Notes: generated by a model from the sequence alone, not told the origin. DNA of 64,000 nucleotides from Chloroflexota bacterium (GCA_005883615.1 VBEC01000022.1:433-64432), one strand, 5' to 3'; shown: positions 2,147 through 29,158, numbered from the stretch's first letter. Program-made: numbers and translations.

Positions 2147-2241
2147 CGCGGCCTTGGAGCCGCCGTCCTGAGCCGGCGGGTGCGTCGCCCATCTGAACGG
2201 GCGGGGGTATCTTGTATGGCCCAGGCCACGAGAGGTCAGCC

Positions 2242-3786
<1,545 letters not shown>

Positions 3787-4192: not shown

Positions 4193-4261
4193 GTAATCGA
4201 TTGCAAAACCGCCTTGACAGCCCGCAGTGAGGCTTCCATGATGCCGCGGTAATCGATTGCA
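4193..4261 (+). promoter_or_regulatory. Sigma70 promoter flanked by two identical LacI-type operators
   Basis: GTAATCGATTGCA at 4193 and 4249; TTGACA 4214-4219, 17 bp spacer, CATGAT 4237-4242. Confidence 0.85.
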
Positions 4262-4407: not shown

Positions 4408-6231
4408 ATGGGTGACGACCAGGCCGCGGCCGTGAGGCTGACGGGCACTCAGATCATCGTCGAGTACCTGATCCGCCAGGGCGTGCCGTACGCGGCCGGC
4501 ATCCCCGGCCACGGCTGCTGGAACCTCACCGACGCGCTGCTCGACCGGGCGGAGGAGGTCCGCACCATCCAGGTCATGCACGAGCAATCGGCCGTGCATC
4601 TGGCCGACGGCTACTACCGCGTCTCGGGCCGGCCGATGCTGGCCTTCACGAGCATCGGTCCCGGCCAGGCCAACACGGTTGTCGGCATGGGGACCGCCTA
4701 CGTCGACTCGACCGCGGTGCTCCTGATGACCGGCTCCGCGCACACGTACATGCGCGGCCACGGACTGCTCCAGGAAGTCGAGCGACGGCACGGCGCCGAC
4801 AACGCGCGGATCTTCGATCCCATCGTCAAGGAGTGGTTCCGGCCGTCGCGCGTCGACGACGTCCCATTCGTCATGCATCGCGCGTGGAACCAGATGATTT
4901 CCGGGCGGCCCGGGCCGGTCCTCCTGGACATGCCGATGGACGTTCAGGCCGAGGCGGCCGACGTCATCCTGCCGGATCCGGAAAAGCGGGAGGCGCGGGG
5001 CGCGCCAAGACCCTCGGCCTCGGAAGTGGAACGGGCGGCTCGTCTCCTCACATCGGCGAAGCGACCCGTCATCGTGGCCGGCGGCGGCGCCATCACCGCC
5101 GAGGCGAGCGAGGCGGTGACAAGGCTGGCCGAGCGCCTTGGCGCCCCGGTCGTCACGACCTGGATGGGCAAGGGCGCGATCGACGAGACCCACGAGCTGA
5201 ACGCCTGGAGCGTTGGCGACACGGCGTCGACCTCGGGCAATCAACTGGCCGCCAATGCCGACGTCCTGCTCTCGGTCGGGTGCCGATTCACCGACTGGTC
5301 GTCATCGTCCTGGCGGCGCGGCGTGAGCTTCGCGATCCCGCCGGCCAAGCTCGTCCAGATCGACATCGACCCGCGCGAGATCGGCAAGAACTACCCGGCG
5401 GAGGTGGCGCTCGTCGGCGATTCGCGCGCCGCGTTGGAGGACCTGCTCGAGGCGATTGGGCCCGGCGAAGGCACAGGGGCGTATCGGTCCACGCCGTACT
5501 TCGAGGAGATTCAGTCCGAGAAGTCGAAGTGGGAAGCGTTCAAGGCGATCAAGCAGCGAAGCGATCACGTTCCGATGACCCAGGCACGAGCCATCCACGA
5601 GATCCAGGCGGCCTGCGGGCCGGACGCCATCGTGACGACCGGCGCCGGGCTGCCGCAAGCGATCGTCAAGCAGAACTGGGTGACCCGCCAGCCGCGGACG
5701 CACATCACCAGCGGTGGCTTCTCGACGATGGGCTTCACGCTGCCGGCGGCCATCGGGGCCAAGCTCGCCAAGCCGGACCGGCAGGTGCTGGGAATCGCCG
5801 GCGACGGCGACTTCCTCCAGACGATGCAGGAGCTTGCGACCGCCACGATGCTCGGCACGCCGGTCGTCTTCGTCGTGCTCAACAACAGCGGCTGGCTCAG
5901 CATCAAGGGCGGCCAGAACAACTTCTTCGGTCGGACAGCGGCCACGGACTTCCTGCGCAAGGACGGCTCGGTCTATTCCCCCGACTACCGCGCGATCGGC
6001 GAGGCGTTCGGCCTCCATGCCGAGGCCGTGGATCGTCCGGAAGGCGTATGTCCGGCCGTCGCGCGAGCGCTCGCGGTCGACGGGCCGTCTCTCGTGGCGG
6101 TTGACGTGGCGAGGGAGTTTCCCGATGCGGGTCTCGACAAGACCGGTTGGTGGGATGCGCCTGTGCCCGAGTTCCATGAGGAGCAGTACGCAGCGCAGAT
6201 CGCCGGCCGGGCCGAGGAGCAGCAGCGATGA
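4408..6231 (+). CDS. ThDP-dependent enzyme, divergent IolD-like (trihydroxycyclohexanedione hydrolase)
   Basis: GIPGHG, HEQ, TSIGPG, LLQEVE; ThDP motif GDGD...NN; heads the iol operon. Confidence 0.75.
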   Translation: MGDDQAAAVRLTGTQIIVEYLIRQGVPYAAGIPGHGCWNLTDALLDRAEEVRTIQVMHEQSAVHLADGYYRVSGRPMLAFTSIGPGQANTVVGMGTAYVDSTAVLLMTGSAHTYMRGHGLLQEVERRHGADNARIFDPIVKEWFRPSRVDDVPFVMHRAWNQMISGRPGPVLLDMPMDVQAEAADVILPDPEKREARGAPRPSASEVERAARLLTSAKRPVIVAGGGAITAEASEAVTRLAERLGAPVVTTWMGKGAIDETHELNAWSVGDTASTSGNQLAANADVLLSVGCRFTDWSSSSWRRGVSFAIPPAKLVQIDIDPREIGKNYPAEVALVGDSRAALEDLLEAIGPGEGTGAYRSTPYFEEIQSEKSKWEAFKAIKQRSDHVPMTQARAIHEIQAACGPDAIVTTGAGLPQAIVKQNWVTRQPRTHITSGGFSTMGFTLPAAIGAKLAKPDRQVLGIAGDGDFLQTMQELATATMLGTPVVFVVLNNSGWLSIKGGQNNFFGRTAATDFLRKDGSVYSPDYRAIGEAFGLHAEAVDRPEGVCPAVARALAVDGPSLVAVDVAREFPDAGLDKTGWWDAPVPEFHEEQYAAQIAGRAEEQQR

Positions 6232-7181
6232 CCGGCCAGCCCAGGCAGGCGGGGCCCAGCCGAGCAGCGCTCGCGAACGCACAGCTCGGGATCAACCAGA
6301 TCCTGTGGGCCAACGACGACCTGCCCGAGCTCAACCCGCCGATCGACGCCGAGGCCATCCTCGACGAAATGGCTCGTCTGGGATTCAAGGGGAGCCAGCT
6401 GGGCACGACCTTCCCGCGCGGAGAGCGGCTCCGTGACGCCCTCGCCGCACGTGACATGCGGATCGCCGAGGTCTACACGACGATCGAGTGCACCGCGGAC
6501 GGCCCGGTCGACGGGGCCCTTGAAGCTGCTCGGGAAAGCCTCGAGGAGCTGTGTGCTGCCGACGGGGACGTGCTTGTGCCGGCGGTGGGGCAGTCCCATG
6601 AGCGCGCCCGGGTGGCCGGTCGGGCGAACGAACCGAGGGTGCCTCGCCTCACCGACGAAGGCATGGCCCGCCTGGCGGGGCTGCTCGACGCGCTCGGCGG
6701 CGAGACGCTGGCCGCCGGCCGAATCCTCGCGTTCCACCATCACGGCGGGACGTACGTCGAGACGCCTGACGAGCTCGAGCAGCTCATGGCGGCCACCGAA
6801 CCGGAGGTGGTCGGCATCTGCCTCGACACCGGGCACTACCTCATGGGCGGAGGCGAGCCGGTCACTGCCCTGCGCCGGTATGGCGAGCGTGTCAGGCACG
6901 TCCACCTGAAGGACATCGATCCAGGGGTCCTGGCGCGAATGCAAACGGGCGAGCTGGGGGGCTTTCTGGCCGGCATCCGCGAACGCGTCTTCACAGAAGT
7001 AGGCAGCGGAAGCCTCGATGTCAGCGGCGTCCTCGCCACGCTCGCCGGCCGGGACTACCGCGGCTGGTTGATCGTCGAGCAGGACACCAGCTGGCATCCG
7101 CCGTCCGAGAGCGCGGCGATGTCGTATGGGGTCGTCACCTTCGTCCTTCGCAACCTGGATCGGCGCCGGATGGCGGCCTGA
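6228..7181 (+). CDS. iolE: Myo-inosose-2 dehydratase
   Basis: WANDDLPEL, FHHHGGT.VE, LDTGH, HVHLKD, VEQD; ATGA overlap with the upstream gene. Confidence 0.88.
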   Translation: MTGQPRQAGPSRAALANAQLGINQILWANDDLPELNPPIDAEAILDEMARLGFKGSQLGTTFPRGERLRDALAARDMRIAEVYTTIECTADGPVDGALEAARESLEELCAADGDVLVPAVGQSHERARVAGRANEPRVPRLTDEGMARLAGLLDALGGETLAAGRILAFHHHGGTYVETPDELEQLMAATEPEVVGICLDTGHYLMGGGEPVTALRRYGERVRHVHLKDIDPGVLARMQTGELGGFLAGIRERVFTEVGSGSLDVSGVLATLAGRDYRGWLIVEQDTSWHPPSESAAMSYGVVTFVLRNLDRRRMAA

Positions 7182-7211
7182 CGTGCCGGCGACGGCAGAC
7201 GGGAGGCGACG

Positions 7212-8222
7212 GTGAGGGTCGCGATGTTCGGGGCCGGCCGAATCGGCCAGCTGCACGGGCGCCTGCTCGTCGCGCAGCCGGAGGTGTCCGAGCTCGTGAT
7301 CTCGGATCCCGATATGGAGCGTGCCCGCGTGGCTGCAAAAGCCACGGGCGCGTCCGTCGCGCCAAGTGTGGACGAGGCCTTCGATGGCGCGGAGGCGGTC
7401 GTCGTCGCCGCGTCAACCGACGCGCACGCTCGTCTCGTTCGGCAGGCGGTCGACCGCGGCATTCCCGTGTTCTGCGAGAAGCCACTGGCCTCCGACCTCG
7501 ACCAGACGATCGAGCTCGTCGATCACATCGAGGCTCGCAGCGTGCCGGTCCAGGTGGGGTTTCAACGGCGGTTCGATCCCGCCATCGCCGAGGCCCGGCG
7601 CCTCCTCGAGTCCGGTGAGCTGGGCACGCTCTACCTGGTTCGGCTGATCGCGCATGATCACGAGCCGCCACCCGACGACTACATCCCCACGTCCGGCGGG
7701 CTGTTCCGCGATTCGTCGATCCACGACTTCGACGCCCTGCGCTGGGTGACCGGTCGATCGGTCGAAGAGGTCTACGCCGCCGGTTCGGTCCGCGGCTTCC
7801 CGGTCTTCGCCAGGAGCGACGACGTCGACACCGCCGCGGTCATCCTTCGCCTCGACGACGGCACGCTCGGCGTCCTGAGCCAGACGCGTCACGATCCGCG
7901 GGGCTATGACGTACGCATGGAGTTCGTCGGCTCGCGCGACTCGGTCGCCATCGGGCTCACCCCGCAGACACCCCTTCGCACGATCGACAGCGGGCTCGTC
8001 GGGTCGGAACCCGGCTGGGATTCCTTCCTCACGCGCTTCGAGACGGCCTATCGAGCCGAGCTCCTGGCATTCCTGCGCGTCGCCCGCGGCGAGATCCCCA
8101 GCCCGTGCACCGCTCGAGACGCGCTCGAAGCGATGCGCATCAGCGTGGCAGCTACCCGCTCACGGGCCGAGCACCGGCCGGTGAGCCTTTCCGAAGTTGG
8201 TCAGCCGGCACACGCCGGCTGA
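7212..8222 (+). CDS. iolG: Inositol 2-dehydrogenase (Gfo/Idh/MocA)
   Basis: GAGRIG, CEKP, GFQRRFD, SGGLFRD..IHDFD, GYDVR.E. Confidence 0.85.
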   Translation: MRVAMFGAGRIGQLHGRLLVAQPEVSELVISDPDMERARVAAKATGASVAPSVDEAFDGAEAVVVAASTDAHARLVRQAVDRGIPVFCEKPLASDLDQTIELVDHIEARSVPVQVGFQRRFDPAIAEARRLLESGELGTLYLVRLIAHDHEPPPDDYIPTSGGLFRDSSIHDFDALRWVTGRSVEEVYAAGSVRGFPVFARSDDVDTAAVILRLDDGTLGVLSQTRHDPRGYDVRMEFVGSRDSVAIGLTPQTPLRTIDSGLVGSEPGWDSFLTRFETAYRAELLAFLRVARGEIPSPCTARDALEAMRISVAATRSRAEHRPVSLSEVGQPAHAG

Positions 8223-8357
8223 CGAAGAGCAGAGAGACCCAGCGAAGACCCGCTGCGGCGGGAGGAGGTGGCGAGAGAAGCGACGGTCAAATCGTGGGAT
8301 GGGCCTGCGCCGTGCAGGTGCCGATCCTGGCAAAGGTGGAGACGTTTAGGAGGAGAC

Positions 8358-9713
8358 ATGAGGCTCGGAAGATTGATGGCGCTGCTCTCGGCAGTGGCGC
8401 TCATCGGCTCGGCTTGCTCGAGCGCGGCCTCGCCGGCAGCGTCGACGCCCGCGAGCGCCGCAGCCAGCGCAGCCGCCAGCGCGGCAGCGAGCGCAGCAGC
8501 CAGCGGCGGCGGAAAGCTCACGATCGCCGCGGTCCAGGGCGGCGAGGACGCCGGCCTGAAGGCCCTGGCACCGATGTACAAGGCGGCGAAGGGCGTCGAT
8601 CTCCAGATCGTCGAGGCGCCCTACGACAATCTCTACTCGAAGCTCGTGAGCACCTTCCAGGCGAACGATTCGACGTACGACCTGGTCATGATGGACGACC
8701 CCTGGATGCCGAAGTTCGGCACCGACGGGTCGCTGTCGGATCTCGGCGCTCTCGGCATCAGCCGCGATCCGGACATCGCTGACGTCGTGTGGGACGTTGG
8801 GACCTGGCCGCCGCCACGTGGACCCGTTCCGCCGAGCGAGAAAGCCAAGCCCAAGCAGTTGCTTGGCGTCACGATCGTCGGCAACGTCGAGATGTTCATG
8901 TATCGCAAGGACCTCACGCCGAACGCACCCGCGAGCTATGACGAAGTTCTCGCGAACGCCAAGGCGCAGAAGGCGGCCGGGCTGACCGGCTACATCATTC
9001 GCGGCAAGGCCACCAACCCTGTCGTTGCCGACTTCCTGCCGATCCTCTGGTCGCAGGGCGGCGACGTCTTCGACGAGAACTGGAACACGACCATCGACAA
9101 CGACGCCTCCAAGGCGGCGATCAACTTCCTCGTCAACGACCTGAAGGCGACAGCCCAGAGCGACCCGGGTAGCACGGACGCGGCCGACCGCGACAAGATC
9201 ATGGCCAACGGCCAGGGCTACGAGTCGTCTGTCTGGCCGGGCGAGATCAACACGGCCGTCCTCGACCCAGCCGTCACGAAGGTCAAGGACAAGGTCGCGT
9301 TCATCCCGATCCCCAAGGGCAAGAGCGGCAAGGGCGTCGGCATGATGGGCAACTGGATGCTCGGCATCCCGAAGGCCTCCAAGAATCAGCAGGCGGCGGC
9401 CGATTTCATCAAGTGGATGTTGCAGGCCGATACGCAGAAGACGTACGCCCAGAACAATGGAATCCCGTCGCGAACGAGCGTCCTCACGGATGCCAGCCTC
9501 ACGGCGGCCAATCCCTACTTCCCGGTACTCGCTGAGGCCCTCAAGTCACCGCCCAACTGGCGGCCCCGGACGGATCAGTGGAACGCCGTGGAAACCATCC
9601 TCGGAACGGAGCTGAACAAGGCGCTGACCGGCGGTCAAACCGGCGATCAGGCGGCAACGAACGCAGCAACCCAGATCCGGGCGCTCATGAAGAGCAAGGG
9701 TTATACCCAGTGA
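8358..9713 (+). CDS. Sugar ABC transporter substrate-binding lipoprotein
   Basis: AGGAGG RBS, lipobox GSAC, Ser/Ala linker, CUT1 SBP features. Confidence 0.9.
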   Translation: MRLGRLMALLSAVALIGSACSSAASPAASTPASAAASAAASAAASAAASGGGKLTIAAVQGGEDAGLKALAPMYKAAKGVDLQIVEAPYDNLYSKLVSTFQANDSTYDLVMMDDPWMPKFGTDGSLSDLGALGISRDPDIADVVWDVGTWPPPRGPVPPSEKAKPKQLLGVTIVGNVEMFMYRKDLTPNAPASYDEVLANAKAQKAAGLTGYIIRGKATNPVVADFLPILWSQGGDVFDENWNTTIDNDASKAAINFLVNDLKATAQSDPGSTDAADRDKIMANGQGYESSVWPGEINTAVLDPAVTKVKDKVAFIPIPKGKSGKGVGMMGNWMLGIPKASKNQQAAADFIKWMLQADTQKTYAQNNGIPSRTSVLTDASLTAANPYFPVLAEALKSPPNWRPRTDQWNAVETILGTELNKALTGGQTGDQAATNAATQIRALMKSKGYTQ

Positions 9714-9737
9714 GCTGGTCCTGCTCGTGAGCGCAGC

Positions 9738-9770
9738 GTGGGGCGGCCGGCGGCTCGCCGGTCGCCCCAC
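9738..9770 (+). other. Intercistronic 15 bp stem-loop (mRNA stabiliser or attenuator)
   Basis: GTGGGGCGGCCGGCG-gct-CGCCGGTCGCCCCAC between SBP and permease genes. Confidence 0.6.
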
Positions 9771-9773
9771 TGA

Positions 9774-10709
9774 ATGCCCAGCATGAACTCGGCCCCTTCG
9801 CGCCCGATGACGCTGGGGGGACGCGTCGGGATGCGGACGGGCTGGTCGCGCCGGACGCGCCAGGAGCAGCTCGTCTACAAGCTCCTCCTGCCCGTGTTCG
9901 GCACCGTCTTCGTGCTGGCCACGATCCCCTTCGTGATGGCGGTCATCGAGGCGCTCACCGCGGGTCCGCGCGGTTTCGTCGGTCTCGCCAACTTCGAGAC
10001 GGCGCTCGGCAATCCACTCCTGTTCGAATCGATCAAGCAGACCGCGTTCTACGCTGCGATCGCCCTTCCAACGGAGATCCTGGGAGGTCTGGGCATCGCC
10101 CTGCTGGTCCACCGGGTGATCCGTTCACCGGGTCTCAGGGCGGCCATCTACGTCGCCGCAATGATCCCGATCGTCATTCCGCAGATCGCAGTGGGCGTCG
10201 TCTTTCGCCTCGTCTATCAACCCGATTACGGCATCCTCAACGTGCTGCTGGGCCGTACCGGCCACGACCAGCTGTTGTGGCTGTCGTCACCGCCCCTGGC
10301 CATGATCGCGACGGCCAGCGTCGACATCTGGCAGTGGACCCCGTTCGTGTACCTCGTCCTCTTCGCCGGGCTGCAGACGGTCCCCAGCGAATCGGTCGAG
10401 GCCGCCCAGGTCGACGGCGCAAGCACCTGGTCGCAGTTCCGGCACATCGAGCTGCCGTATCTGCGGCCGCTCCTGCTGTTGGTCCTGTTCTTCCGCCTCG
10501 CCGACGTCATACGCGTCTTCGACCACGTCTATGTACTGACGGGCGGCGGTCCGGGGACGACGACCCAATATCTGAGCCTGTACATCTACCGGATCGGGTT
10601 CCAATTCACCGACCTCAGCCAGGCCTCGGCGCTGGCCGTCCTGGTGATGGCCGCCATGACGATCTTCTACACGATCGTTTCGCGCTTCCTGCCGGCGGAC
10701 CGGGGCTGA
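9774..10709 (+). CDS. Sugar ABC transporter permease
   Basis: TM helices, WQWTPF, EAAQVDGA loop. Confidence 0.92.
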   Translation: MPSMNSAPSRPMTLGGRVGMRTGWSRRTRQEQLVYKLLLPVFGTVFVLATIPFVMAVIEALTAGPRGFVGLANFETALGNPLLFESIKQTAFYAAIALPTEILGGLGIALLVHRVIRSPGLRAAIYVAAMIPIVIPQIAVGVVFRLVYQPDYGILNVLLGRTGHDQLLWLSSPPLAMIATASVDIWQWTPFVYLVLFAGLQTVPSESVEAAQVDGASTWSQFRHIELPYLRPLLLLVLFFRLADVIRVFDHVYVLTGGGPGTTTQYLSLYIYRIGFQFTDLSQASALAVLVMAAMTIFYTIVSRFLPADRG

Positions 10710-11551
10710 TGAACCGGGGCCGGCGCTCGACGCGCATCGCGACCTACCTCCTGCTTCTTGGCATCGGCCTGATCTTCGCGTTTCCGCTCTATTACCTGAT
10801 CGTCACGTCGTTCAAGACCAAGTCCGAGCTGTTCGCAGCCGTACCGTCGCTCGTCCCGCAGGCGCTCAACCCAGCCGCCTACGAATCGGTCCTCTTTACG
10901 CGGGGATACACAGGCCTGCTCTTCAACAGCATCGTCGTAGGGCTGAGCGCGACGATCCTCGCCATCGCGGTCGCCTTCGCGATCTGTTATCCGATCACCC
11001 GACTGCCGGCGTCCAGGCGGCTGCGCGCTTTCGTCCTCAACTGGGCGTTGTCGCTGCGCTTCCTGCCGCCCATCGCGGTGGTGATCCCGTACTTCACGAT
11101 CATCCGGACGGTCGGGCTGTACAACCAGCTGCCAGCACTCATCGTGGTCTACACGATCTTCAACCTGCCCCTGGCGATCTGGATGCTGCGCGGCTTCCTG
11201 GACGAGATCCCCCTCGAGATCGAGCAGGCGGCCCTGGTTGACGGGGCGAGCCGATGGCAGGCCTTCCGCCACGTGCTGTTGCCGCTCTCCCGCACGGCGA
11301 TCCTGGCCGTGGTGATCATCGTCTTCGCGTTCGACTGGGCCGAATTCCTGTTCGCCTTCATCCTGACGGCGACGCCCCAGGCGCAGACCTTCCCGGTAGG
11401 TGTCCAGGGCCTGGTCACCCAGTTCGAGATCATCTGGAACGAGATGGCCGCCGGGGGCGTGATCGCAATCGTGATCCCGCTCACGCTCATGCTGATCGCG
11501 CGGCGGCACGTCATGACCGGCTTGACGTTCGGGGTCATCCGCGAGAAATGA
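10709..11551 (+). CDS. Sugar ABC transporter permease
   Basis: TGATG coupling, EQAALVDGA loop. Confidence 0.92.
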   Translation: MNRGRRSTRIATYLLLLGIGLIFAFPLYYLIVTSFKTKSELFAAVPSLVPQALNPAAYESVLFTRGYTGLLFNSIVVGLSATILAIAVAFAICYPITRLPASRRLRAFVLNWALSLRFLPPIAVVIPYFTIIRTVGLYNQLPALIVVYTIFNLPLAIWMLRGFLDEIPLEIEQAALVDGASRWQAFRHVLLPLSRTAILAVVIIVFAFDWAEFLFAFILTATPQAQTFPVGVQGLVTQFEIIWNEMAAGGVIAIVIPLTLMLIARRHVMTGLTFGVIREK

Positions 11552-12393
11552 GTGCGTCGGGCGGCGATCCGAACGGGGGTCCGCGGGTCTTCCTGAACGG
11601 GGCCACGATCATGACGACCCCGACCGCCGAGCACATCCGCGTTGCTCGAGAGGCCGGCTTCGACGGGGTGGAGGTCCGGGCCGAGCGCCTGCTAGACCGG
11701 CCCGAAGAGGTCGCGGCCGCCAGTCCGATTGTCCAGCCCCGCGAAGTCTGGAGCCTCAACGGGCTCCAGCTGCAGGTGGGTCCCGACGGCCGCCTCGATG
11801 GCGAACGGGCGGAGCGCGAGCTCTCGCCGCGCCTTGCCATTTCGGGGGTGCTCGGCGCCGAGTACCTGCTGGTCGTGCCACCGCGACAGGCAGGAGTCGA
11901 TCGTGGACGGGCGATCGAAGCCATGCGTGAGGGGCTCGCCCTGGTGCGTGATCGAGCGGCGGCGGTTGGAGTCGGCGTCGCTTTCGAATTCCTCGGATTC
12001 GCGGACTGCCCGATCGACAGCCCGGCGCTGGCCGCCGAGGTCGTCGGTCCGATGGACGGCGTTGACCTCGTCCTCGATTCGTGTCACTGGCACGCCAGCG
12101 GCTCCGCATCCCTGGCGGACTTCCCGGTCGATCGGCTGGCGATGGTCCATCTCAACGATGCGCCGGGTAAGCCCCCTCGCGAGATCGAGGACGCCGATCG
12201 CGTCCTGCCCGGGAATGGTGTCATCCGCCTCGCTGACCTGGTGGCGCAGCTCACGGCTCGGGGTTACGGGGGACCGTGGAGCCTCGAGACCTTCAATCCG
12301 ACCTACTGGGCCGCGGACCCCCGACGGATCGCGAGCGAGGGCCGCCGACGCGTGGGCGCGCTGCTTGGGGAGCCGTCGAAGGTGGCTGGTTGA
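11548..12393 (+). CDS. iolI: Sugar phosphate isomerase/epimerase, IolI-like (inosose isomerase)
   Basis: AFEFLGF, LDSCHW, HLND, DADRVLPG.G, SLETFN. Confidence 0.75.
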   Translation: MSASGGDPNGGPRVFLNGATIMTTPTAEHIRVAREAGFDGVEVRAERLLDRPEEVAAASPIVQPREVWSLNGLQLQVGPDGRLDGERAERELSPRLAISGVLGAEYLLVVPPRQAGVDRGRAIEAMREGLALVRDRAAAVGVGVAFEFLGFADCPIDSPALAAEVVGPMDGVDLVLDSCHWHASGSASLADFPVDRLAMVHLNDAPGKPPREIEDADRVLPGNGVIRLADLVAQLTARGYGGPWSLETFNPTYWAADPRRIASEGRRRVGALLGEPSKVAG

Positions 12394-13457
12394 TGCACAA
12401 CTTGGAGGTCGGGCGCTCGGCGACGATCAGCGACGTCGCTCGACGAGCCGGCGTGTCGACCGCGACGGTCAGTCGCGTGATCTCGGGCTCAACGACGGTC
12501 CGCGCGACGACGCGGGCGGGCGTCCTCGCAGCGGTCGAGGCTTTGGGCTATCGGCCCTCCGGCGTGGCCCGGTCGCTCAAGCTCCGAACGACGCATACGC
12601 TCGGCCTCGTGGTCACGGACATCGCCAACCCGTACTTCCCCCAGATCGTGCGTGCGGTCGAGGACGCCGCGCTGGAGCGCGGCCATACGGTCCTGTTGTG
12701 CGATAGCGCGGACGACCCGTCGCGAGAGGAGACCTACCTCGACCTGCTCATCGACCGCCGCGTGGACGGGATCGTGATCGCCTCGAGCGGGCTCCAGGCC
12801 CGCCATGGCGACTGGTTGGCCACCCGGACGGTGCCGGTCGTGCTGGTCAACTGCACGGCACGCGGCGCCGCCTTGCCGGCGATCCTGAGCGACAACCGGG
12901 CCGGCGGCCGCCTGGCAGCCGAACACGTGCTGGACCTCGGCCATCGCCGGATCGGGCATATTTCGGCACCACCGCGCAACGCCGCCGCTGGAGATCGCGT
13001 GGCCGGGATCCAGGATGCGGTGGATTCGGGGCGCTACCCCGGCGTCGAGCTGACGGTCGTCGAAGGCGACGGCCAGGCGGAGGGCGCGGAGGCCGCGACC
13101 CTCGCGCTTCTCGAGCGTGCGCCGGGAGTCACGGCCATCCTGTGCTACAACGACCTGACGGCCGTCGGGGCGTTGCGGACGCTGCGTGGCCTGGGCCGCC
13201 GAGTTCCCGAGGACGTCAGCGTCGTCGGCTACGACGACATTCCCCTGGCTGCGTGGATGGAGCCGCCCATCACGTCGGTCGCGCAGCAGACCTCTGCGAT
13301 GGGCCGCTGGGCGGTCGAGCGGCTGCTGGAGCGCATGGCCGGCGAAGATGAGCCGGGGTCGGACCGTCGGCAGCTGGGAGAGCGCTCCGAGAACGTGGTG
13401 TTGCTTCCCGTGGAGCTGTGCGTCCGCGGATCGACCGGGCCGCCGCCATGGGCTTGA
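12393..13457 (+). CDS. LacI family transcriptional regulator
   Basis: ATISDVARRAGVSTATVSRV HTH; VPEDVSVVGYDD. Confidence 0.95.
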   Translation: MHNLEVGRSATISDVARRAGVSTATVSRVISGSTTVRATTRAGVLAAVEALGYRPSGVARSLKLRTTHTLGLVVTDIANPYFPQIVRAVEDAALERGHTVLLCDSADDPSREETYLDLLIDRRVDGIVIASSGLQARHGDWLATRTVPVVLVNCTARGAALPAILSDNRAGGRLAAEHVLDLGHRRIGHISAPPRNAAAGDRVAGIQDAVDSGRYPGVELTVVEGDGQAEGAEAATLALLERAPGVTAILCYNDLTAVGALRTLRGLGRRVPEDVSVVGYDDIPLAAWMEPPITSVAQQTSAMGRWAVERLLERMAGEDEPGSDRRQLGERSENVVLLPVELCVRGSTGPPPWA

Positions 13458-14338
13458 CAGGCGTCGGGGCGAGCCCCGAAGCAGCGCTGGGCTCGCGGGA
13501 CCACTTGAGTTTGCTTCGCCGCGCGGCCTCAGGGAGCGCGACGCGCTCTGCGGGTGGCCAGCTCCAGCGAGTCACTCCGGCTGAGGCCGGCTGGCGCTAT
13601 CTCTCGTTCGAGGCCCACCGCCTTACGGCGGGGGACTCCCTGCACATCAACGCCAAAGGCCAGGAAAGCCTGATCATCGTCCTCGAGGGCACGGCAACGG
13701 TCCGAGCCGGAAACCGGACGTTCAGCGACCTCGGCACACGTGACAGCGTCTTCGACGGCCCGCCGCCCGCGATGGTCCTGGTTGAGCCGGGCGGCCGGAT
13801 CGAGGTCGACGCAGGCCGTGAGGCGCTGATTGCAGTAGGCTCGGCTCCCGCCGGCGACCTGCGGACGACGCGGGCGATCGAGCCGGGCGACATCCTGGCG
13901 GAGGCCAGGGGGACCGGCAACACGGAGCGGCGAATCCACCACCTCCTGCCGTCGTCGGCCGAAGCCGGTCGCCTGATCGCCTTCGAGGTGTTCACGCCGG
14001 GCGGCAACTGGTCGAGCTATCCGCCCCACAAGCACGACACCGAAGATCCTCCACGCGAAAGCTACCTGGAGGAGCTCTATTACTACCGCCTCGCCAAGCC
14101 GACCGGGTTCGCGTTCCAACGGATCTACACGCCGGATCGGTCGCTGGACGAGGCTCTCGTCGCGCGCGACGGCGACCTTGTGCTCGTGCCGCGCGGCTAT
14201 CACGTCGTGGCGACCGCGCCGGGCTACGACTGCTACTACCTGAACGTGATGGCTGGCCCGACGCGCGAATGGCGATTTACAGTGGATCCGGACCACGTCT
14301 GGTTGATGGACTGGGATCCCGCCCGGCCTCGGAGATAG
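13448..14338 (+). CDS. iolB: 5-deoxy-glucuronate isomerase
   Basis: EVFTPGGNWSSYPPHKHD, LEELYYY, VPRGYH, YYLNVMAGP. Confidence 0.93.
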   Translation: MGLTGVGASPEAALGSRDHLSLLRRAASGSATRSAGGQLQRVTPAEAGWRYLSFEAHRLTAGDSLHINAKGQESLIIVLEGTATVRAGNRTFSDLGTRDSVFDGPPPAMVLVEPGGRIEVDAGREALIAVGSAPAGDLRTTRAIEPGDILAEARGTGNTERRIHHLLPSSAEAGRLIAFEVFTPGGNWSSYPPHKHDTEDPPRESYLEELYYYRLAKPTGFAFQRIYTPDRSLDEALVARDGDLVLVPRGYHVVATAPGYDCYYLNVMAGPTREWRFTVDPDHVWLMDWDPARPRR

Positions 14339-14340
14339 CC

Positions 14341-15429
14341 ATGACCGAAACGACCACGCTCACGCCGCTCCAGCAGACAGTGCGCCTGGGCACGGCTCTT
14401 TGGAACGATTCGAGCGCGCCAGACGAGCTCGAATATGCCATCGCAAACGGGGCGGTGGGCGCGACGTCCAACCCGCCGATCACGCTCGAGGTCCTCAAGA
14501 AGGAGCCCGAGCGCTGGAAGGCGCGCGCTCGGGAGCTGTTCGCCTCGTTTCCGACGTGGTCGGAGACGCGGATTACGTGGCAGATCTACGAGGAGATCGC
14601 GCTGCGCGGCGCGGCCATGTTGCGCCCGATCTTCGAGCGAACCGGCGGCGCGGCGGGCCGCCTGTCGATCCAGACCGACCCGACGCTCTTCCGGGACTCC
14701 GAAGCCATGCTCGAACAGGGCCTCCATTTCGCCGGCCTGGCGCCCAACCTGCAGGTCAAGTTTCCGAGCACCCGCGCGGGCGTCGAGGCGATCGAGGAGG
14801 CGACCTATCGCGGGGTGAACATCAACGCAACGGTCAACTTCAGCGTGCCGCAGGCACTGGCTGTGGCCGAAGCGATCGAGCGAGCGTTGGAGCGGCGAGC
14901 CGCCGAGGGCATGGACAACAGCATCTTCCACCCCGTCTGCACGATCATGGTCGGGCGGCTCGACGACTGGATGAAGGCGATCGCCGAGCGAGACGACATC
15001 GTGCTCACGCCGGGGACCGCCGACTGGGCGGGCGTTGCCGCATTCAAGCGTGCCTACGGCCTGTATCGCGAGCGCGGCTACCGGACCCGGCTGCTGGCAG
15101 CCGCGTATCGGAACCAGCTGCATTGGTCGCAGCTGGTGGGTGGCGACGTGGTGCTGACGATGACCCACCAGTGGCAGGTCCGCTTCAACGGGTCACGCGT
15201 CGAGGTCCGATCGAGGATCGACGAGCCGGTCGATCCGGCCATCGTCGCCGAGCTCTCGGAGCTGATCCCCGACTTCCGGCTGGCCAACGAGCCGGACGGC
15301 ATGACGCCCGAACAGTTCGATTCGTACGGCGCCACCGTCCGCACACTGCGCCAGTTCATCGGCGCTTACCACGACCTTCAGGCAACGATCCGCGACTTCG
15401 TCCTGCCGAACCCCGACAAGAAGGGCTGA
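14341..15429 (+). CDS. Transaldolase family protein (atypical active site)
   Basis: LWND, GATSNP, Schiff-base VKFP, NINAT, VGRLDD. Confidence 0.88.
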   Translation: MTETTTLTPLQQTVRLGTALWNDSSAPDELEYAIANGAVGATSNPPITLEVLKKEPERWKARARELFASFPTWSETRITWQIYEEIALRGAAMLRPIFERTGGAAGRLSIQTDPTLFRDSEAMLEQGLHFAGLAPNLQVKFPSTRAGVEAIEEATYRGVNINATVNFSVPQALAVAEAIERALERRAAEGMDNSIFHPVCTIMVGRLDDWMKAIAERDDIVLTPGTADWAGVAAFKRAYGLYRERGYRTRLLAAAYRNQLHWSQLVGGDVVLTMTHQWQVRFNGSRVEVRSRIDEPVDPAIVAELSELIPDFRLANEPDGMTPEQFDSYGATVRTLRQFIGAYHDLQATIRDFVLPNPDKKG

Positions 15430-16232: not shown

Positions 16233-17630
16233 TCAGCTCTGCCGGAGCGCGGGGCTCAAGCCGCGCTTGAGGAACTGGCCGTGGCCCTTGCGACCCGTGA
16301 ACTCCCCGTCGCGGACGATCACCGAACCGCGCGACAGGACCACGTCCGAGCCGCCCTGCACCGCTCGGCCCTCGTAGCAGGAGTAGTCGACGTTCATGTG
16401 GTGCGTCTTTGCGCTGATCGTGTGCTTCCGGCCGGGGTCGTAGACGACGAGGTCGGCATCGGAGCCGACGGCGATGGCGCCCTTCCGCGGGTACAGCCCG
16501 AACATTCGGGCCGGCGCGGTCGAGAGGACCTCGACCCAGCGCTCGCGCGTCAACCGGCCGGCGACCACGCCGCCGTCGTGCAGCAGGTCAACGCGATCCT
16601 CCACGCCGGGCAGGCCGTTGGGCACCTTCCGGAAGTCGTCCTTGCCAAGGTCTTTCTGGCCGTGGAAGTCGAACGGGCAGTGGTCGGTCGACACGACCTG
16701 GAGATCGTCCTTGCGCAGGCCGCTCCACAGTTCCTCCTGGTGGTCTTTCGGCCGAAGGGGCGGCGAGCACACGAACTTGGCACCCTCGAAGCCGTGGCCC
16801 ATGTCATCGAGCGACAGGAACAGGTACTGGGGACAGGTTTCGGCGAAGGTCATCGCGCCGCGATCGCGGGCGGCCCTGACCTCGTTCAGCGCATCGCGTG
16901 CCGATAGGTGAACGATGTACACGGGCACGCCGGCGGCCTCGGCCAGGCGGATCACCCGGTTGGTCGCCTCGCCTTCGAAGATGGGGTAGCGCACGACACC
17001 GTGGTAGTACGGATCGGTCTTGCCCGAGTCCGCGAACTGGGCCGCGACGATGTCGATCGCCAACCCGTTTTCGGCGTGCATCATGATCAGCCCGCCGTTC
17101 TTCGCGGTCTGCTGCAGCGCGCGGAAGATCGCCCCGTCGTCGCTGAAGAAGACGCCGGGGTAGGCCGTGAACAGCTTGAAGTCGGGGACACCCTCCGCGA
17201 CGAGGGTATCCATCTCCGCCAGCGTCTCGTCATTGACGTCCGACATGATCATGTGGAAGCCGTAGTCGGCGACCGCGTTGCCTTCGGCCTTGGCATGCCA
17301 GGCGTCGAGGCCCTCGCGCAGGGACTTGCCGCGCGACTGCACGGCGAAGTCGACGATCGTCGTCGTCCCGCCGAAGGCCGCCGCTCGCGTACCGGTCTCG
17401 AAGGTGTCCTTCGCGAAGGTGCCGCCGAAGGGCAATTCCATATGGGTATGCACGTCGATCGCGCCGGGAATGAGGTATTTGCCGCGGGCGTCGATGGACT
17501 CGTCGGCGGTCACCCCCGTGGCGGCCAGGTCGCGGCCGATCAGCGCGATCTGCTCGCCGTCGACCAGCACGTCCGCGCCGGACGAGCCCTCGGCCGTGAC
17601 CACGATGCCGTTGGCGATCAGGGTGCGCAT
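16233..17630 (-). CDS. hydA: Dihydropyrimidinase / D-hydantoinase
   Basis: IDVHTH, GGTTT, FKLF, MHAENG, VHLS, STDHCPF, PNGLPGVE. Confidence 0.95.
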   Translation of the reverse strand: MRTLIANGIVVTAEGSSGADVLVDGEQIALIGRDLAATGVTADESIDARGKYLIPGAIDVHTHMELPFGGTFAKDTFETGTRAAAFGGTTTIVDFAVQSRGKSLREGLDAWHAKAEGNAVADYGFHMIMSDVNDETLAEMDTLVAEGVPDFKLFTAYPGVFFSDDGAIFRALQQTAKNGGLIMMHAENGLAIDIVAAQFADSGKTDPYYHGVVRYPIFEGEATNRVIRLAEAAGVPVYIVHLSARDALNEVRAARDRGAMTFAETCPQYLFLSLDDMGHGFEGAKFVCSPPLRPKDHQEELWSGLRKDDLQVVSTDHCPFDFHGQKDLGKDDFRKVPNGLPGVEDRVDLLHDGGVVAGRLTRERWVEVLSTAPARMFGLYPRKGAIAVGSDADLVVYDPGRKHTISAKTHHMNVDYSCYEGRAVQGGSDVVLSRGSVIVRDGEFTGRKGHGQFLKRGLSPALRQS

Positions 17631-17673
17631 CACGCTCCTCTCGAGTGGGGCTGGGGCGAGGCGAGCCTTCGGG

Positions 17674-18099
17674 TCAGGATTCGGTGACTGCCCCTGGCTC
17701 CGCCTCGTGATACCAGGGAGCGTAGGACAGGCCGACGAGCAATCCCTCCGGGCCGATGAGGCGCGCGACCGTCTGACCCCACGGCTCGGTTCGGGCGCCA
17801 TGGAGCAGCCGGTAGCCCTTGCCCTCGAGCTCGGCTGCGGCGGCCGCCACGTCATCGACCTCGAACTCGATCGAGGCCTGCGGTGGGGGTACCTCGTTGG
17901 GCCATCCCGGCTGGCCGAAGCACGCCTGAGCGGCGTCCTCGAGCCGCCACAAACCGAAGTGCTTGACACCCTCGAAATCGAACGTGGCCGGATAGTCATG
18001 GTCCGAGAGAGGGATGCCCAGGGCATCGACATAGAAGCTTCGTGCCGACGCCAGGTCCGGGACGATCGGAGCGACGCCCGCGACGAAGCGGACTTTCAC
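17674..18099 (-). CDS. VOC/glyoxalase family protein
   Basis: FY..ALG, EFEVDDV, EPWGQ. Confidence 0.85.
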   Translation of the reverse strand: MKVRFVAGVAPIVPDLASARSFYVDALGIPLSDHDYPATFDFEGVKHFGLWRLEDAAQACFGQPGWPNEVPPPQASIEFEVDDVAAAAAELEGKGYRLLHGARTEPWGQTVARLIGPEGLLVGLSYAPWYHEAEPGAVTES

Positions 18100-18154
18100 G
18101 CTGGCCCTGGCCGGGTGATGTCCGGGCCGGGGGGCGACGTGGCCCGGCGAAGCG

Positions 18155-18220
18155 CTACTTCGTCGAGGTCTTGGGCTTGTTCTGCTTCGGCTTCTTGGGG
18201 GTCTTGGCCTTCTTGTCCAT
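18155..18220 (-). CDS. 21-aa Lys-rich small protein MDKKAKTPKKPKQNKPKTSTK
   Basis: GAGGAG RBS 6 nt before ATG; every sense codon ends in G or C; lies within a minus-strand operon. Confidence 0.65.
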   Translation of the reverse strand: MDKKAKTPKKPKQNKPKTSTK

Positions 18221-18317
18221 CAGTTACTCCTCGCCGTTGATGGTGGCAGGGGACAGGGTAGCGCCGATCCAGAGCGCCGGCAGAGCCGCCACGCGCCGAC
18301 AGAGCCGCGGCCCAGCC

Positions 18318-19328
18318 TCAGGCTCGCCCGGCTTCTACTTCCCGCATGGCGGGCACGATCTCCCGGCCGTAGACCTCGAGTATCCGTTCCTCGTCGCCGT
18401 TCATGAGGTAGATGTTGAACTGGTCGACGCCGGCATCGGCGAGCTCGCGCAGCTTGGCGATGTGGTCGTCGACCGAGCCCAGGACGCAGAAGCGATCGGT
18501 CACCTCGTCGCCGACGAAGCGGGCATTGGTCGAGCCGACCTCGGCGTGGTGGTGGTAGTCGTAGCCCTCGCGGTCCCCGATGTACCCGGTGAGTGCCTCG
18601 GGCAGCTGGCCGCGCGGGTACTTGGTCACCAGGTCGACGACGTGGTTGCTGACAAGCGCCGGGAACCAGCGAGTCCGTTCGCGACAGTCCGAAATTTCGC
18701 CCACGTGGGCCGGCGCAGCGGCCTGGACCTTGATCGCGCCCGGATCGCGGCCGGCGGCCCTTGCCGCCTCTCGGACCTGGCCCACGAACCAGCGTACGAG
18801 GTCCGGGTCGGCCAGTTGCAGGATCACCCCGTCCGCCACACGGCCGGTCATCGTCAGGGCCATCGGGCCATAGCCGGCAACCCACACGGGCAGCTTCCAG
18901 CGACCGCTCCACGTCAGCTGCAGCTCCGTGCCCTCGTACTTCACCGGCCTGCCCTCGACCAGGTCGCGAATGAGGTGGATCGCCTCCTCGAGGGTGGCCA
19001 TCGTGGTCGGCCCCTTGCCGAGAACGCGACGGGCGGAATCGCCGCGCCCGATACCGAGATCCATGCGCCCGCCGCTGACCTGGTTGAGCGTGGCGAGCGC
19101 GCTGGCGGTCACCGAGGGCTCGCGGGTCGCGGGGTTGGTCACGCAGGTGCCCAGGCGCAGCCGCTCGCTGGCCGTCGCCATGAGCGTCAGCAGGACGTAT
19201 GCCTCCTGCCAGAGGACGTGGGAGTCGAACAGCCACGCATACTCGAAGCCGGCAGCCTCCGCCTGGCGAGTCAGCGCGAGCGTTCGTTCGATCGTGTGGT
19301 CGGGCTTGAGCGTGAATCCAAATTTCAT
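18318..19328 (-). CDS. Mer-like LLM class, probably F420-dependent, oxidoreductase (TIGR03842-like)
   Basis: WLFDSHVLW, GTCVTNP.TR, LGIGRGDS; lies between ureidopropionase and hydA. Confidence 0.85.
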   Translation of the reverse strand: MKFGFTLKPDHTIERTLALTRQAEAAGFEYAWLFDSHVLWQEAYVLLTLMATASERLRLGTCVTNPATREPSVTASALATLNQVSGGRMDLGIGRGDSARRVLGKGPTTMATLEEAIHLIRDLVEGRPVKYEGTELQLTWSGRWKLPVWVAGYGPMALTMTGRVADGVILQLADPDLVRWFVGQVREAARAAGRDPGAIKVQAAAPAHVGEISDCRERTRWFPALVSNHVVDLVTKYPRGQLPEALTGYIGDREGYDYHHHAEVGSTNARFVGDEVTDRFCVLGSVDDHIAKLRELADAGVDQFNIYLMNGDEERILEVYGREIVPAMREVEAGRA

Positions 19329-19410
19329 GGGGGCAACTTCAGCGTTGAGCTACTGCTTGCTTTCCAAGGTCCAGGACGGAGGCCCTCCGATGCCACTGGC
19401 GCCCGAAGAC

Positions 19411-20259
19411 TCAGGGTCGGACGAGGTCGTCGTAGGCGTCCGGGCGCCGGTCGCGGTAGAACTGCCATGTCTGGCGGACTTCCTGGATCTTGTCGAGGTC
19501 CATGTCCCGCACGAGGAGCTCCTCGTCGTGGGCGGAGCCGACCTCGCCGATGAATTGCCCGCGGGGATCGCAGAAGTAGCTCTGGCCGTAGAAGTCGTCG
19601 TCGCCCAGCGGTTCGATGCCAACGCGGTTGATCGTCCCAACGAAATAGCCGTTCGCGACGGCGTGGCTGACCTGCTCGATCCGCCACAGGTATTCCGACA
19701 GCCCGCGCGAAGTGGCGCTCGGGATGAACACCATCTCGGCGCCGTTGAGGCCGAGGGCGCGAGCTCCCTCGGGAAAGTGCCGGTCGTAGCAGATGTACAC
19801 GCCGACCTTGCCGACCGCGGTTTCGAAGACGGGATAGCCCAGGTTCCCCGGGCGGAAGTAGTACTTCTCCCAGAAGCCCTTGACGTCCGGGATATGAGTC
19901 TTGCGGTACTTGCCGAGGTAGGTCCCGTCGGCATCGATCACGGCCGCGGTGTTGTAGTAGATGCCCGAGGCCTTGTCGTCCTCCTCGTACATAGGCACCA
20001 CGAGGACCATGCCCGTCTGCTTCGCCAGATCCTGCATCCGCTTGGTGGTCGGGCCGTCCGGGATGTGCTCGGTGTACGCGTAGTACTGGGGATCCTGGAC
20101 CTGGCAGAAGTAGGGCCCGTAGAAGAGCTCCTGGAAGAGCATCACCTGGGCGCCCTGCCTGGCGGCATCCTCCGCGGCCTTTTCGTGCTTCTGGATCATC
20201 GACTCCTTGTCGCCTGTCCAGGTCGCCTGTAGCAGCGCGCCCTTCACGATCCGTGGCAT
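19411..20259 (-). CDS. Carbon-nitrogen hydrolase, beta-ureidopropionase-like
   Basis: Nitrilase triad FQE / YRK.HIP / ICYDRHFPE; FWEKYYF. Confidence 0.9.
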   Translation of the reverse strand: MPRIVKGALLQATWTGDKESMIQKHEKAAEDAARQGAQVMLFQELFYGPYFCQVQDPQYYAYTEHIPDGPTTKRMQDLAKQTGMVLVVPMYEEDDKASGIYYNTAAVIDADGTYLGKYRKTHIPDVKGFWEKYYFRPGNLGYPVFETAVGKVGVYICYDRHFPEGARALGLNGAEMVFIPSATSRGLSEYLWRIEQVSHAVANGYFVGTINRVGIEPLGDDDFYGQSYFCDPRGQFIGEVGSAHDEELLVRDMDLDKIQEVRQTWQFYRDRRPDAYDDLVRP

Positions 20260-25920: not shown

Positions 25921-25977
25921 CCACCGTTGTGATCTAATCGCAGCATAGAAGCCGGCATGGTCAAGCGAGGTGGACCG

Positions 25978-27312
25978 ATGGGCATCAGCACCGCACCCGG
26001 CATGACCGCCGAGGAGATCGTCCGACTTTCGCGCGAGCACACCTTCTTCTCGTGGTCCGTCCAGGGGGCCGTGGACCCGATCGCGGTGGACCACGCCGAG
26101 GGGATCTATCTGTACACGCCGGACGGCACGCGGATCATCGACTTCAACAGCCAGCTGATGTCGGTCAACATCGGCCACGGCGACCGGCGAGTGATCGATG
26201 CCATCACGGCACAGGCGACGAAGCTGCAATTCGTCCAGCCGGCCTTCGTCACGGAACCCAGGGCGCGCCTCGGGCAGAAGCTCGCCGAGATCATGCCCGG
26301 CGACCTGGACAAGGTGTTCTTCACGCTGGGCGGCGCCGAGGCGATCGAAAACGCAATCAAGATCGCTCGACATGCGACCGGCCGCTACAAGCTCCTCGCC
26401 CGATATCGCGCGTACCACGGCGCGACCATGGGCGCGATGACCCTGACCGGCGATCCACGGCGTTGGGCGAACGAGCCCGGCCTGGTCGGGGTCGTCCGCT
26501 ATCCGGACACCCACCGCTGGGGCGAAAAGGAACCGCGCCCGGCCGCCGAGTCGCTGCAGGGCCTGGAGGACGTCATCCGCTACGAGGGGCCGCACACGAT
26601 CGCGGCGATATTCCTCGAGACCATCGTGGGCACAAACGGGATCCTCATTCCGCCCGACGGCTACATCCAGGGCGTCCGCCAGCTGTGCGACCGCTACGGC
26701 ATCCTGATGGTCGCCGACGAGGTGATGGCGGGTTTCGGCCGGACCGGGAAATGGTTCGCCATCGACAACTGGGACGTGACCCCTGACCTGATGACGATGG
26801 CCAAGGGCCTGACCAGCTCATATCTGCCGCTGGGTGCCGTGGCGATGCGCCGCCCCCTCGCCGAGAAATTCGAGTCGATGATGTACTACGGCGGACTGAC
26901 CTACAGCAGCCACCCGGTGAGCCTTGCCGCTGCGCTTGCCACGATCTCCGTGTACGAAGAGGACGGGCTGATCGAGAACGCCCGGCGGCTGGGACCGGTC
27001 ATGCGGAGCCACCACGAGGACTTGTACGCCCGCCATCCCAGCGTGGGCGCCTACCGCAACCTCGGCCTGTTCGGGATCATCGACCTGGTGCGCCGTCGCG
27101 AGCCCTTCACGCCGATGACGAGCTTCAACGGCACCTCCGACGAGATGAAGGCCATCGGCAAGTTCCTGCGCGACAACGGGCTGTACACCATGATCGCCAA
27201 CAACTCGATCCACACCAATCCGCCGCTGTGCATCACGGAAGCGCAGCTGGCCGAGGGTTTCGAGATCATCGACCGGGCGCTCGACATCGCCGACCAGGCC
27301 GTTCAGGCCTGA
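25978..27312 (+). CDS. Class III (omega) aminotransferase, probable beta-alanine transaminase
   Basis: GGAEA, YHG, ADEVMAGFGRTG, MAKGLT; pyrimidine cluster context. Confidence 0.88.
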   Translation: MGISTAPGMTAEEIVRLSREHTFFSWSVQGAVDPIAVDHAEGIYLYTPDGTRIIDFNSQLMSVNIGHGDRRVIDAITAQATKLQFVQPAFVTEPRARLGQKLAEIMPGDLDKVFFTLGGAEAIENAIKIARHATGRYKLLARYRAYHGATMGAMTLTGDPRRWANEPGLVGVVRYPDTHRWGEKEPRPAAESLQGLEDVIRYEGPHTIAAIFLETIVGTNGILIPPDGYIQGVRQLCDRYGILMVADEVMAGFGRTGKWFAIDNWDVTPDLMTMAKGLTSSYLPLGAVAMRRPLAEKFESMMYYGGLTYSSHPVSLAAALATISVYEEDGLIENARRLGPVMRSHHEDLYARHPSVGAYRNLGLFGIIDLVRRREPFTPMTSFNGTSDEMKAIGKFLRDNGLYTMIANNSIHTNPPLCITEAQLAEGFEIIDRALDIADQAVQA

Positions 27313-27319
27313 CGCTTCG

Positions 27320-28255: not shown

Positions 28256-28265
28256 GCACGCGACC

Positions 28266-29147: not shown

Positions 29148-29158
29148 CGACCGGTCGC

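Follow-up and report, generated by a model that had tools for sequence, protein, structure and literature searches.

A transaldolase-family gene in the place of IolC and IolJ points to a possible kinase-free route of inositol catabolism in Chloroflexota

Introduction

Myo-inositol, derived from phytate and lipids, is a major carbon source in soil and gut. In the canonical pathway of Bacillus subtilis (IolG-E-D-B-C-J-A), IolB isomerizes 5-deoxy-glucuronate, an aldose acid, to 2-deoxy-5-keto-D-gluconate (DKG), a ketose acid that is phosphorylated by the kinase IolC and cleaved by the class II aldolase IolJ into dihydroxyacetone phosphate (DHAP) and malonate semialdehyde. Here, we analyze a stretch of 64,000 nucleotides from a Chloroflexota bacterium (GCA_005883615.1, VBEC01000022.1:433-64432; hereafter the window, with positions counted from its first letter). 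It carries an inositol-type operon in which iolB is followed by a gene of the transaldolase/fructose-6-phosphate aldolase (TAL/FSA) family, hereafter the operon TAL. An initial annotation of this DNA had proposed that the product of this gene stands in for both IolC and IolJ, which would make the pathway kinase-free, and the computational checks reported below support this proposal.

A described variant of the last cleavage is the fusion of IolC with a DUF2090 domain, an alternative DKG 6-phosphate aldolase that still needs the kinase (Price et al. 2022, PMC9007349). In the part of that work considered here, the only candidates that GapMind gives for the cleavage are IolJ and DUF2090, and 8 of the 15 inositol-using microbes from IJSEM had neither of them (PMC9007349). 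A 2022 survey defined iol clusters by IolB, IolC, IolD, and IolE, and transaldolase is unmentioned in the portion of it considered here (PMC9430895). Our full-text searches, limited to the main text of openly accessible papers, found no literature linking a transaldolase or a transketolase to DKG or to inositol catabolism.

In sugar catabolism at large, the 6-deoxy-6-sulfofructose transaldolase (SF-TAL) route of sulfoquinovose breakdown leaves an anionic aldehyde. The proposed role of the operon TAL resembles this route (BmSF-TAL, 8bc3), in which an isomerase makes a ketose with an anionic tail and an enzyme of the TAL family removes a three-carbon unit from it without phosphorylation. SF-TAL differs in its length (~220 aa) and in its substrate, which has a sulfonate tail on a six-carbon chain. 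The operon TAL matches 8bc3 weakly and partially (E 7e-6 to 8e-11, ~70 residues), and no sulfoquinovose genes were noted among the TAL neighbors in the loci surveyed. Compared with the B. subtilis system, our locus has the IolG, IolE, IolD, and IolB types together with MmsA/IolA in one row, with a repressor and a transporter; it differs in that neither the operon nor the genome has IolC or the IolJ class II aldolase, and in the TAL gene that follows iolB. With the IolC-DUF2090 fusion it would share a non-orthologous answer to the last cleavage of the pathway, but the fusion depends on phosphorylation by the kinase, and its aldolase domain is a LacD-like one of class I (PMC9007349). DUF2090 was not found in our genome.

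Results

The operon and its genome have a transaldolase-family gene and no recognizable IolC or IolJ

The operon TAL gene (14341-15429, + strand; 362 aa; PF00923 at 125 bits, cut-off 27) comes directly after iolB, the 5-deoxy-glucuronate isomerase gene (13418-14338, + strand; PF04962 at 305 bits; TIGR04378 at 309 bits, cut-off 205). The stop codon of iolB (TAG, 14336-14338) is separated by 2 bp from the ATG at 14341, not by the 3 bp given initially, and a Shine-Dalgarno-like GGAG lies 7 nt upstream of this ATG. Just upstream of the operon as it had been delimited, we found mmsA/iolA (2212-3786, + strand; PF00171 at 468 bits; TIGR01722 at 718 bits, cut-off 448.5), encoding a CoA-acylating (methyl)malonate-semialdehyde dehydrogenase. 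Profile scans of the window bore out the claim that it contains neither a PfkB kinase nor a class II aldolase.

The same holds for the pathway enzymes at the scale of the genome (3.06 Mb in 112 contigs, 94% complete). No gene passes the cut-off of the IolC model TIGR04382 (best 187 bits vs 300), and neither DUF2090 nor class II aldolases (PF01116) gave a match, while the same searches matched in control genomes. The search for class I fructose-bisphosphate aldolases with PF00274 also left our genome unmatched, but it matched in 0 of the 14 control genomes and thus gives no information. The best IolC-like PfkB protein (contig C100, 187 bits) was rejected as an IolC, since the model of 2-keto-3-deoxygluconate (KDG) kinase gives it a higher score. 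Its neighbors are a 2-keto-3-deoxy-6-phosphogluconate (KDPG) aldolase, a sugar-acid dehydratase of the MR_MLE type, and an ABC importer; because it lies beside this aldolase and this dehydratase, it reads as KdgK. The sole aldolase candidates seen in the genome are two genes of the DeoC/LacD family. One of them is in the window (54604-55617), and it was discarded as an IolJ analogue since it lies between peptidase and GNAT genes and has no neighboring kinase.

The genome has two other members of the TAL/FSA family. A short housekeeping TAL is encoded on contig C20 (TIGR00875 at 292 bits, cut-off 246), and the operon TAL is therefore an additional paralogue. The third is a divergent FSA-like gene on contig C67 (TIGR00875 at 125 bits, cut-off 246), which is overlapped by a PfkB gene; the pair (G000:C67:11326-12896; L015:7243-8978, - strand) is followed by a TylF-type methyltransferase gene. 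We considered this pair as a hidden IolC/IolJ and rejected it: the kinase is fructokinase-like (139 bits, vs 122 with the IolC model), and the pair lies in the TylF-type methyltransferase context and not near any iol gene.

The operon TAL has a transaldolase fold and an unusual active site

The AlphaFold2 (AF2) model of the operon TAL (pLDDT 93.8, pTM 0.91) matched 7bbx, 3clm, and 3r5e in a Foldseek search with a TM score of 0.80 (E 7e-18) at 21-23% identity, and on this model we are confident that the protein has the full-length transaldolase fold. It resembles the long transaldolases (~350-360 aa) of Corynebacterium glutamicum (3r5e) and Neisseria gonorrhoeae (3clm) along the whole fold (TM 0.78-0.80), and retains their Schiff-base Lys, Asp, Asn/Thr motifs, and anion-site Arg. 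It differs from them by the low identity, by two active-site changes (Glu to Gln and Phe to Met), and by its context, which is catabolic and not that of the pentose-phosphate pathway.

Across 22 aligned proteins of the clade, which are 62-84% identical to the operon TAL, K140, D23, N162/T164, R206, R257, Q111, and M203 are all invariant (22/22). K140, in NLQVKFP, aligns with the lysine of IK(I/V)PAT in 3r5e and 3clm, the Schiff-base lysine (TalB K132). R206 and R257 align with R181 and R228 of TalB (1onr), which are its phosphate-site arginines, and TalB S226 aligns with A255. The general acid-base residue of transaldolase is a Glu (TalB E96, NgTal E93), and its position is occupied by Q111 (RLSIQTDP vs RVSIEVDP and FVSLEVSP). 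The operon TAL shares this Gln with FSA (1l6w), yet the FSA-type Tyr is absent, the position of TalB F178 being taken by M203. Further differences from FSA are the length (362 vs ~220 aa) and the weakness of the match (E 4.5e-6). The titles of PDB entries describe TalB E96Q/F178Y as an engineered aldolase-like variant.

One alternative is that the operon TAL is an ordinary transaldolase of fructose 6-phosphate and sedoheptulose 7-phosphate that balances sugar phosphates on inositol, with DKG handled by other enzymes. The fold, the catalytic Lys, the best matches, which are true transaldolases, and the loci of Chloroflexia in which TAL lies beside a split transketolase are in line with it. Yet it would leave the step from DKG to malonate semialdehyde without an enzyme in a genome that has a housekeeping TAL elsewhere. 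Moreover, the operon TAL fails all curated NCBIfam transaldolase models (NF002881, 107 bits vs 367; TIGR00876, 75 vs 234; also TIGR00874), as well as the FSA model (TIGR00875, 34 vs 246), its catalytic Glu is an invariant Gln, and its clade shows a tight coupling with iolB and mmsA while tending to exclude IolC (see below). We give this explanation very little credence.

TAL and IolC seldom share a genome

To study the distribution of the two enzymes, we used 401 Chloroflexota genomes drawn evenly and including our own. We identified iolB in 91 of them (over the cut-off in 79), the TAL clade in 35, and IolC in 26, of which 25 were over the cut-off and one, at 294.7 bits, was directly beside iolB. 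Among the 91 genomes with iolB, TAL without IolC was found in 25 (14 genera, 6 families), IolC without TAL in 26 (17 genera, 12 families), both in none, and neither in 40. Genomes with TAL were iolB-positive in 25 cases out of 35, against 66 out of 366 for those without it, and in most of the 25 TAL-only genomes the genes for IolB and TAL are direct neighbors, whichever comes first. These counts ignore kinship, the related genomes are not independent, and no P value is given.

The mutual exclusion had been anticipated by the initial annotation. It is complete among the 401 Chloroflexota genomes, but across phyla an IolC that passes the cut-off shares the cluster with TAL in 5 of 50 TAL genomes. 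Three of these five have IolC-DUF2090 fusions (L079 at 954 bits with the bifunctional model). In the fourth, a LacD/DUF2090-like gene adjoins IolC, and the fifth (L041, genome G015) has an unfused IolC in the TAL-mmsA cluster and encodes class II aldolases outside this cluster. The exclusion of IolC by TAL is hence strong but not absolute.

These data weigh on a second alternative, in which TAL would be a non-orthologous IolJ that splits DKG 6-phosphate into DHAP and malonate semialdehyde, the phosphate being provided by an unrecognized kinase encoded elsewhere. The L041 cluster, which holds an unfused IolC and no aldolase, would suit such an enzyme, as would the five further PfkB kinases of our own genome and the retention of both anion-site arginines. 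On the other hand, an IolC that passes the cut-off is absent from 45 of the 50 TAL genomes in the survey across phyla, and from all 25 TAL-positive, iolB-positive genomes of Chloroflexota. There is no kinase among the conserved neighbors of iol-type loci, and at least four of the five genomes with both TAL and IolC already have a DKG 6-phosphate aldolase of their own. Finally, the donors of the TAL/FSA family carry a free C1 hydroxyl, unlike donors of the DHAP type. We therefore find this alternative highly improbable.

The 40 iolB-positive genomes with neither system include 11 from a single genus (g76), whose IolB scores are just above the cut-off. We considered a split transketolase as a third solution for these 40 genomes and rejected it as a general one, since it is clearly adjacent to iolB only in G337; in G057 and G261 a related transketolase lies 10-12 kb from iolB on the same contig. 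In G337, which has neither IolC nor the TAL clade, the cluster (L102, G337:C1:1646000-1665000, positions 5046-12834, - strand) comprises a split transketolase (N and C subunits), an iolG-like gene, iolB (341 bits), iolD, a second iolG-like gene, and an iolE-like gene. It may represent a third variant, of the transketolase type.

The TAL clade is large and often linked to inositol genes and mmsA

Even the 120th best match to the operon TAL in the protein collection has 62% identity to it, and a relative is encoded in at least 584 one-per-species genomes (584 of 600 candidate stretches), in phyla that include Chloroflexota, Acidobacteriota, Verrucomicrobiota, Spirochaetota, Actinomycetota, and Pseudomonadota. 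We counted conserved neighbors in the best 80 loci and found the association with inositol genes that had been predicted: mmsA is the commonest (30 loci), followed by iolD (29), iolB (28), iolE (27), and iolG (25). No conserved kinase cluster was found among the neighbors of the iol-type loci in this set. For the classification of contexts and the tree, we used 79 loci, leaving out one without a full open reading frame (ORF). TAL has iolB within 1.3 kb in 20 of the 79, iolB elsewhere in the flank in 11, and an adjacent mmsA without iolB in 15; these three counts are lower bounds because many loci are on short contigs. The cleanest case is a locus of Terriglobia (L031) with lacI, iolB (343 bits), TAL, iolD (933 bits), mmsA (570 bits), iolE, and iolG (462 bits), and no kinase.

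In Chloroflexia, the partners of TAL are mmsA, a small cupin, a luciferase-like oxygenase, a split transketolase, a GntR regulator, and UPF0261 and PEP-utilizer proteins. In Accumulibacter (L088) and Betaproteobacteria (L054), stretches of 8-16 kb carry an RpiR regulator, TAL, an MmsA-like dehydrogenase (L088), and the TRAP transporter DctPQM. Such rows suggest that a ketose acid is taken up directly and feeds a TAL-MmsA module, and lend support to a link of the enzyme with MmsA and with a carboxylate taken up from outside. Taken together, the contexts of Chloroflexia and Betaproteobacteria support a conserved TAL-MmsA module acting on carboxylated ketoses.

Two further observations concern the clade. 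Four of them from Chloroflexia (L036, L039, L067, and L044, +/-7 kb) share a recurrent non-iol cluster of TAL, mmsA, luciferase-like oxygenase, small cupin, split transketolase, and GntR, with UPF0261 and PEP-utilizer-domain proteins upstream and Mo-hydroxylase subunits close by. In a genome of the same family as ours (G399:C1), there are three copies of the TAL clade, of which the first adjoins an iolB gene, the second is separated by 3 kb from another iolB, and the third is elsewhere.

The gene row and its substrate

The row was defined by ORF calls and by Pfam and NCBIfam profile scans of the window, whose G+C content is ~68%. All genes are on the + strand and stand in the order given by the initial annotation, now preceded by mmsA: iolD-like, iolE, iolG, sugar ABC importer, iolI-like, lacI, iolB, and the TAL/FSA-family gene. 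The iolD-like gene (4378/4408-6231, with the ATG at 4408 as its likely start) encodes an enzyme with three thiamine pyrophosphate (TPP) domains that is the genome's best IolD match. It scores 317 bits with the IolD model TIGR04377 (cut-off 715), and acetolactate synthase models give it higher scores; we presume that its product is a divergent ring-opening hydrolase. It is followed by genes for an IolE-like inosose dehydratase (6228-7181; AP_endonuc_2; TIGR04379 at 212 bits, cut-off 290) and an IolG-like inositol 2-dehydrogenase (7212-8222; GFO/IDH/MocA domains; TIGR04380 at 300 bits, cut-off 355). The order and context of these three genes are those of an iol pathway, and all three proteins are divergent and under their equivalog cut-offs. 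They are 50-76% identical to their counterparts in L021 and L034, and the iolD-like protein is 75-76% identical to the product of the gene at the same position in these loci.

The importer consists of a solute-binding protein (8268-9713, SBP_bac_1) and two permeases (9774-10709 and ~10727-11551, both BPD_transp_1); ORF calls and profile scans found no ABC ATPase gene in the operon. The iolI-like gene (~11540-12393, start approximate) encodes a TIM barrel of the xylose-isomerase type (PF01261 at 86 bits, the match covering residues 129-363 of the long ORF 11254-12393). A LacI-family regulator (~12420-13457, start approximate; LacI HTH and Peripla_BP domains) precedes iolB. The gene beyond TAL, a dihydropyrimidinase (16233-18032, - strand), is convergent, and TAL is therefore the last gene of the row.

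The divergence of iolD, iolE, and iolG raises a third alternative: that the IolB-TAL pair and the operon use another deoxy-keto sugar acid, which would not come from myo-inositol and might release an aldehyde other than malonate semialdehyde. The higher scores of the iolD-like protein with acetolactate synthase models and the low scores of iolE and iolG speak for it, together with the occurrence of the clade without iolB, next to cupins, luciferase-like oxygenases, split transketolases, and TRAP transporters. Against it, the IolB and MmsA of the window pass equivalog or subfamily cut-offs, the L031 locus surrounds its iolB-TAL pair with a canonical IolD and IolG, and MmsA is the commonest neighbor of the clade. 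On balance, we hold this alternative to be unlikely.

Regarding transcription, the promoter scan gave a single promoter-like site (4214-4242), where 1.2 were expected from shuffled sequences, and the terminator scan found none after the TAL gene. Contigs from RNA libraries that belong to a relative (~94% identical) cover 14216-15429 in overlapping pieces, two of which span the junction of iolB and TAL, a weak hint of expression. These contigs come from two runs of one soil study, whose libraries may contain DNA, and they show neither strand nor level; upstream of 13900, the cover of the operon is almost nil in both runs. The DNA of the window is matched in soil metagenomes from 15 studies, and a separate soil-metagenome contig covers lacI-iolB-TAL (12956-14659) with one difference.

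Beyond the operon, two regions (16233-20259, - strand, and 25957-31165, + strand) encode the dihydropyrimidinase (TIGR02033 at 573 bits), a CN-hydrolase resembling beta-ureidopropionase, luciferase-like oxygenases, a class III aminotransferase, and an ABC importer of the NMT1/THI5 type. These genes look like a reductive pyrimidine route, which would likewise end in malonate semialdehyde, and the region around the operon may be a hub feeding MmsA.

Discussion

The analysis established which genes the operon contains, that IolC, IolJ, and DUF2090 were not found, what fold and active-site residues the operon TAL has, and how its clade co-occurs with iolB and IolC; from this we infer a substrate, products, and an acceptor for the enzyme. 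In our proposal, IolG, IolE, the IolD-like enzyme, IolB, and MmsA would form an inositol-type pathway in which a single enzyme of the TAL clade replaces both the phosphorylation of DKG (IolC) and its cleavage (IolJ or DUF2090). Written from its keto end, DKG is CH2OH-CO-CHOH-CHOH-CH2-COO-, with a fructose-like D-threo arrangement derived from the configuration of D-gluconate, so that its free CH2OH-CO- end and D-threo carbons would match the pattern of transaldolase donors. The C5 keto group of the unphosphorylated DKG would be bound by K140 as a Schiff base, while R206 and R257 would hold the carboxylate of DKG in the site that receives the phosphate of fructose 6-phosphate, and later the phosphate of the acceptor. 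The C3-C4 bond, between the two carbinol carbons, would then be cut and malonate semialdehyde would leave, to be converted by MmsA into acetyl-CoA. We consider it probable that the operon TAL acts on unphosphorylated DKG in this way, freeing malonate semialdehyde for MmsA and either passing the dihydroxyacetone (DHA) unit to glyceraldehyde 3-phosphate or releasing it.

These two fates of the DHA unit correspond to two modes. In a transaldolase mode, glyceraldehyde 3-phosphate would accept the enzyme-bound unit, which yields fructose 6-phosphate without the use of ATP in this step; in an FSA-like mode, the bound unit would be protonated and freed as DHA. We slightly favor the transaldolase mode, because, of the 24 genomes with both TAL and iolB, no more than 11 have a Dak1, a smaller share than among the genomes with IolC (16 of 26). 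The 13 genomes without Dak1 include assemblies of 1-10 contigs. Release of free DHA is possible: our own genome has Dak1, and other kinases could act on DHA.

Several observations count against the proposed route. The absence of IolC from our genome is strong but not proven, because the genome is 94% complete and in 112 contigs. As to the mechanism, both the Glu of transaldolase and the Tyr of FSA are missing from the clade. Since iolD, iolE, and iolG of the window are divergent and each under its equivalog cut-off, the true substrate of the operon may be a relative of inositol. The clade is not restricted to inositol, as 10 of the 35 TAL genomes of the Chloroflexota sample have no iolB and 33 of the 79 loci have neither iolB nor an adjacent mmsA. 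We also considered that iolB-linked TAL genes might form a separate subclade, but rejected this since they are intermixed with those of other contexts on the tree (79 loci, a quick method with SH-aLRT support only); function can therefore not be read from the subclade. To these points one must add the 40 iolB-positive genomes with neither TAL nor IolC, and the five genomes across phyla in which the two enzymes occur in the same cluster.

Beyond the single operon, we see about an even chance that inositol catabolism, like that of sulfoquinovose, exists in parallel variants: a kinase/aldolase form, a transaldolase form, and possibly a transketolase form. The clade would then consist of 2-deoxy-5-keto-aldonate transaldolases, which would work without the transaldolase Glu and without the FSA Tyr. 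Together, TAL and MmsA would make a portable module that needs no ATP and splits ketose acids into malonate semialdehyde and a three-carbon unit, the latter entering sugar-phosphate metabolism directly. In Chloroflexota, Acidobacteriota, Verrucomicrobiota, and others, the module would serve for inositols, and in Betaproteobacteria for carboxylates brought in by TRAP transporters.

If the proposed route is true, tools that score inositol use by IolB/C/D/E or by IolC with IolJ or DUF2090, as these are set out in the parts of the two works considered here (PMC9430895, PMC9007349), would miss many users: in our Chloroflexota sample, the iolB-positive genomes with the TAL clade are about as many as those with IolC (25 vs 26). 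It would also extend the transaldolase family, which is of interest for biocatalytic C-C bond formation, by a new class of substrates, ketoses with a carboxylate tail, and by a new type of active site. Overall, the genomic evidence suggests a widespread and undescribed shortcut in the breakdown of inositol, carried by a large unannotated clade of enzymes.

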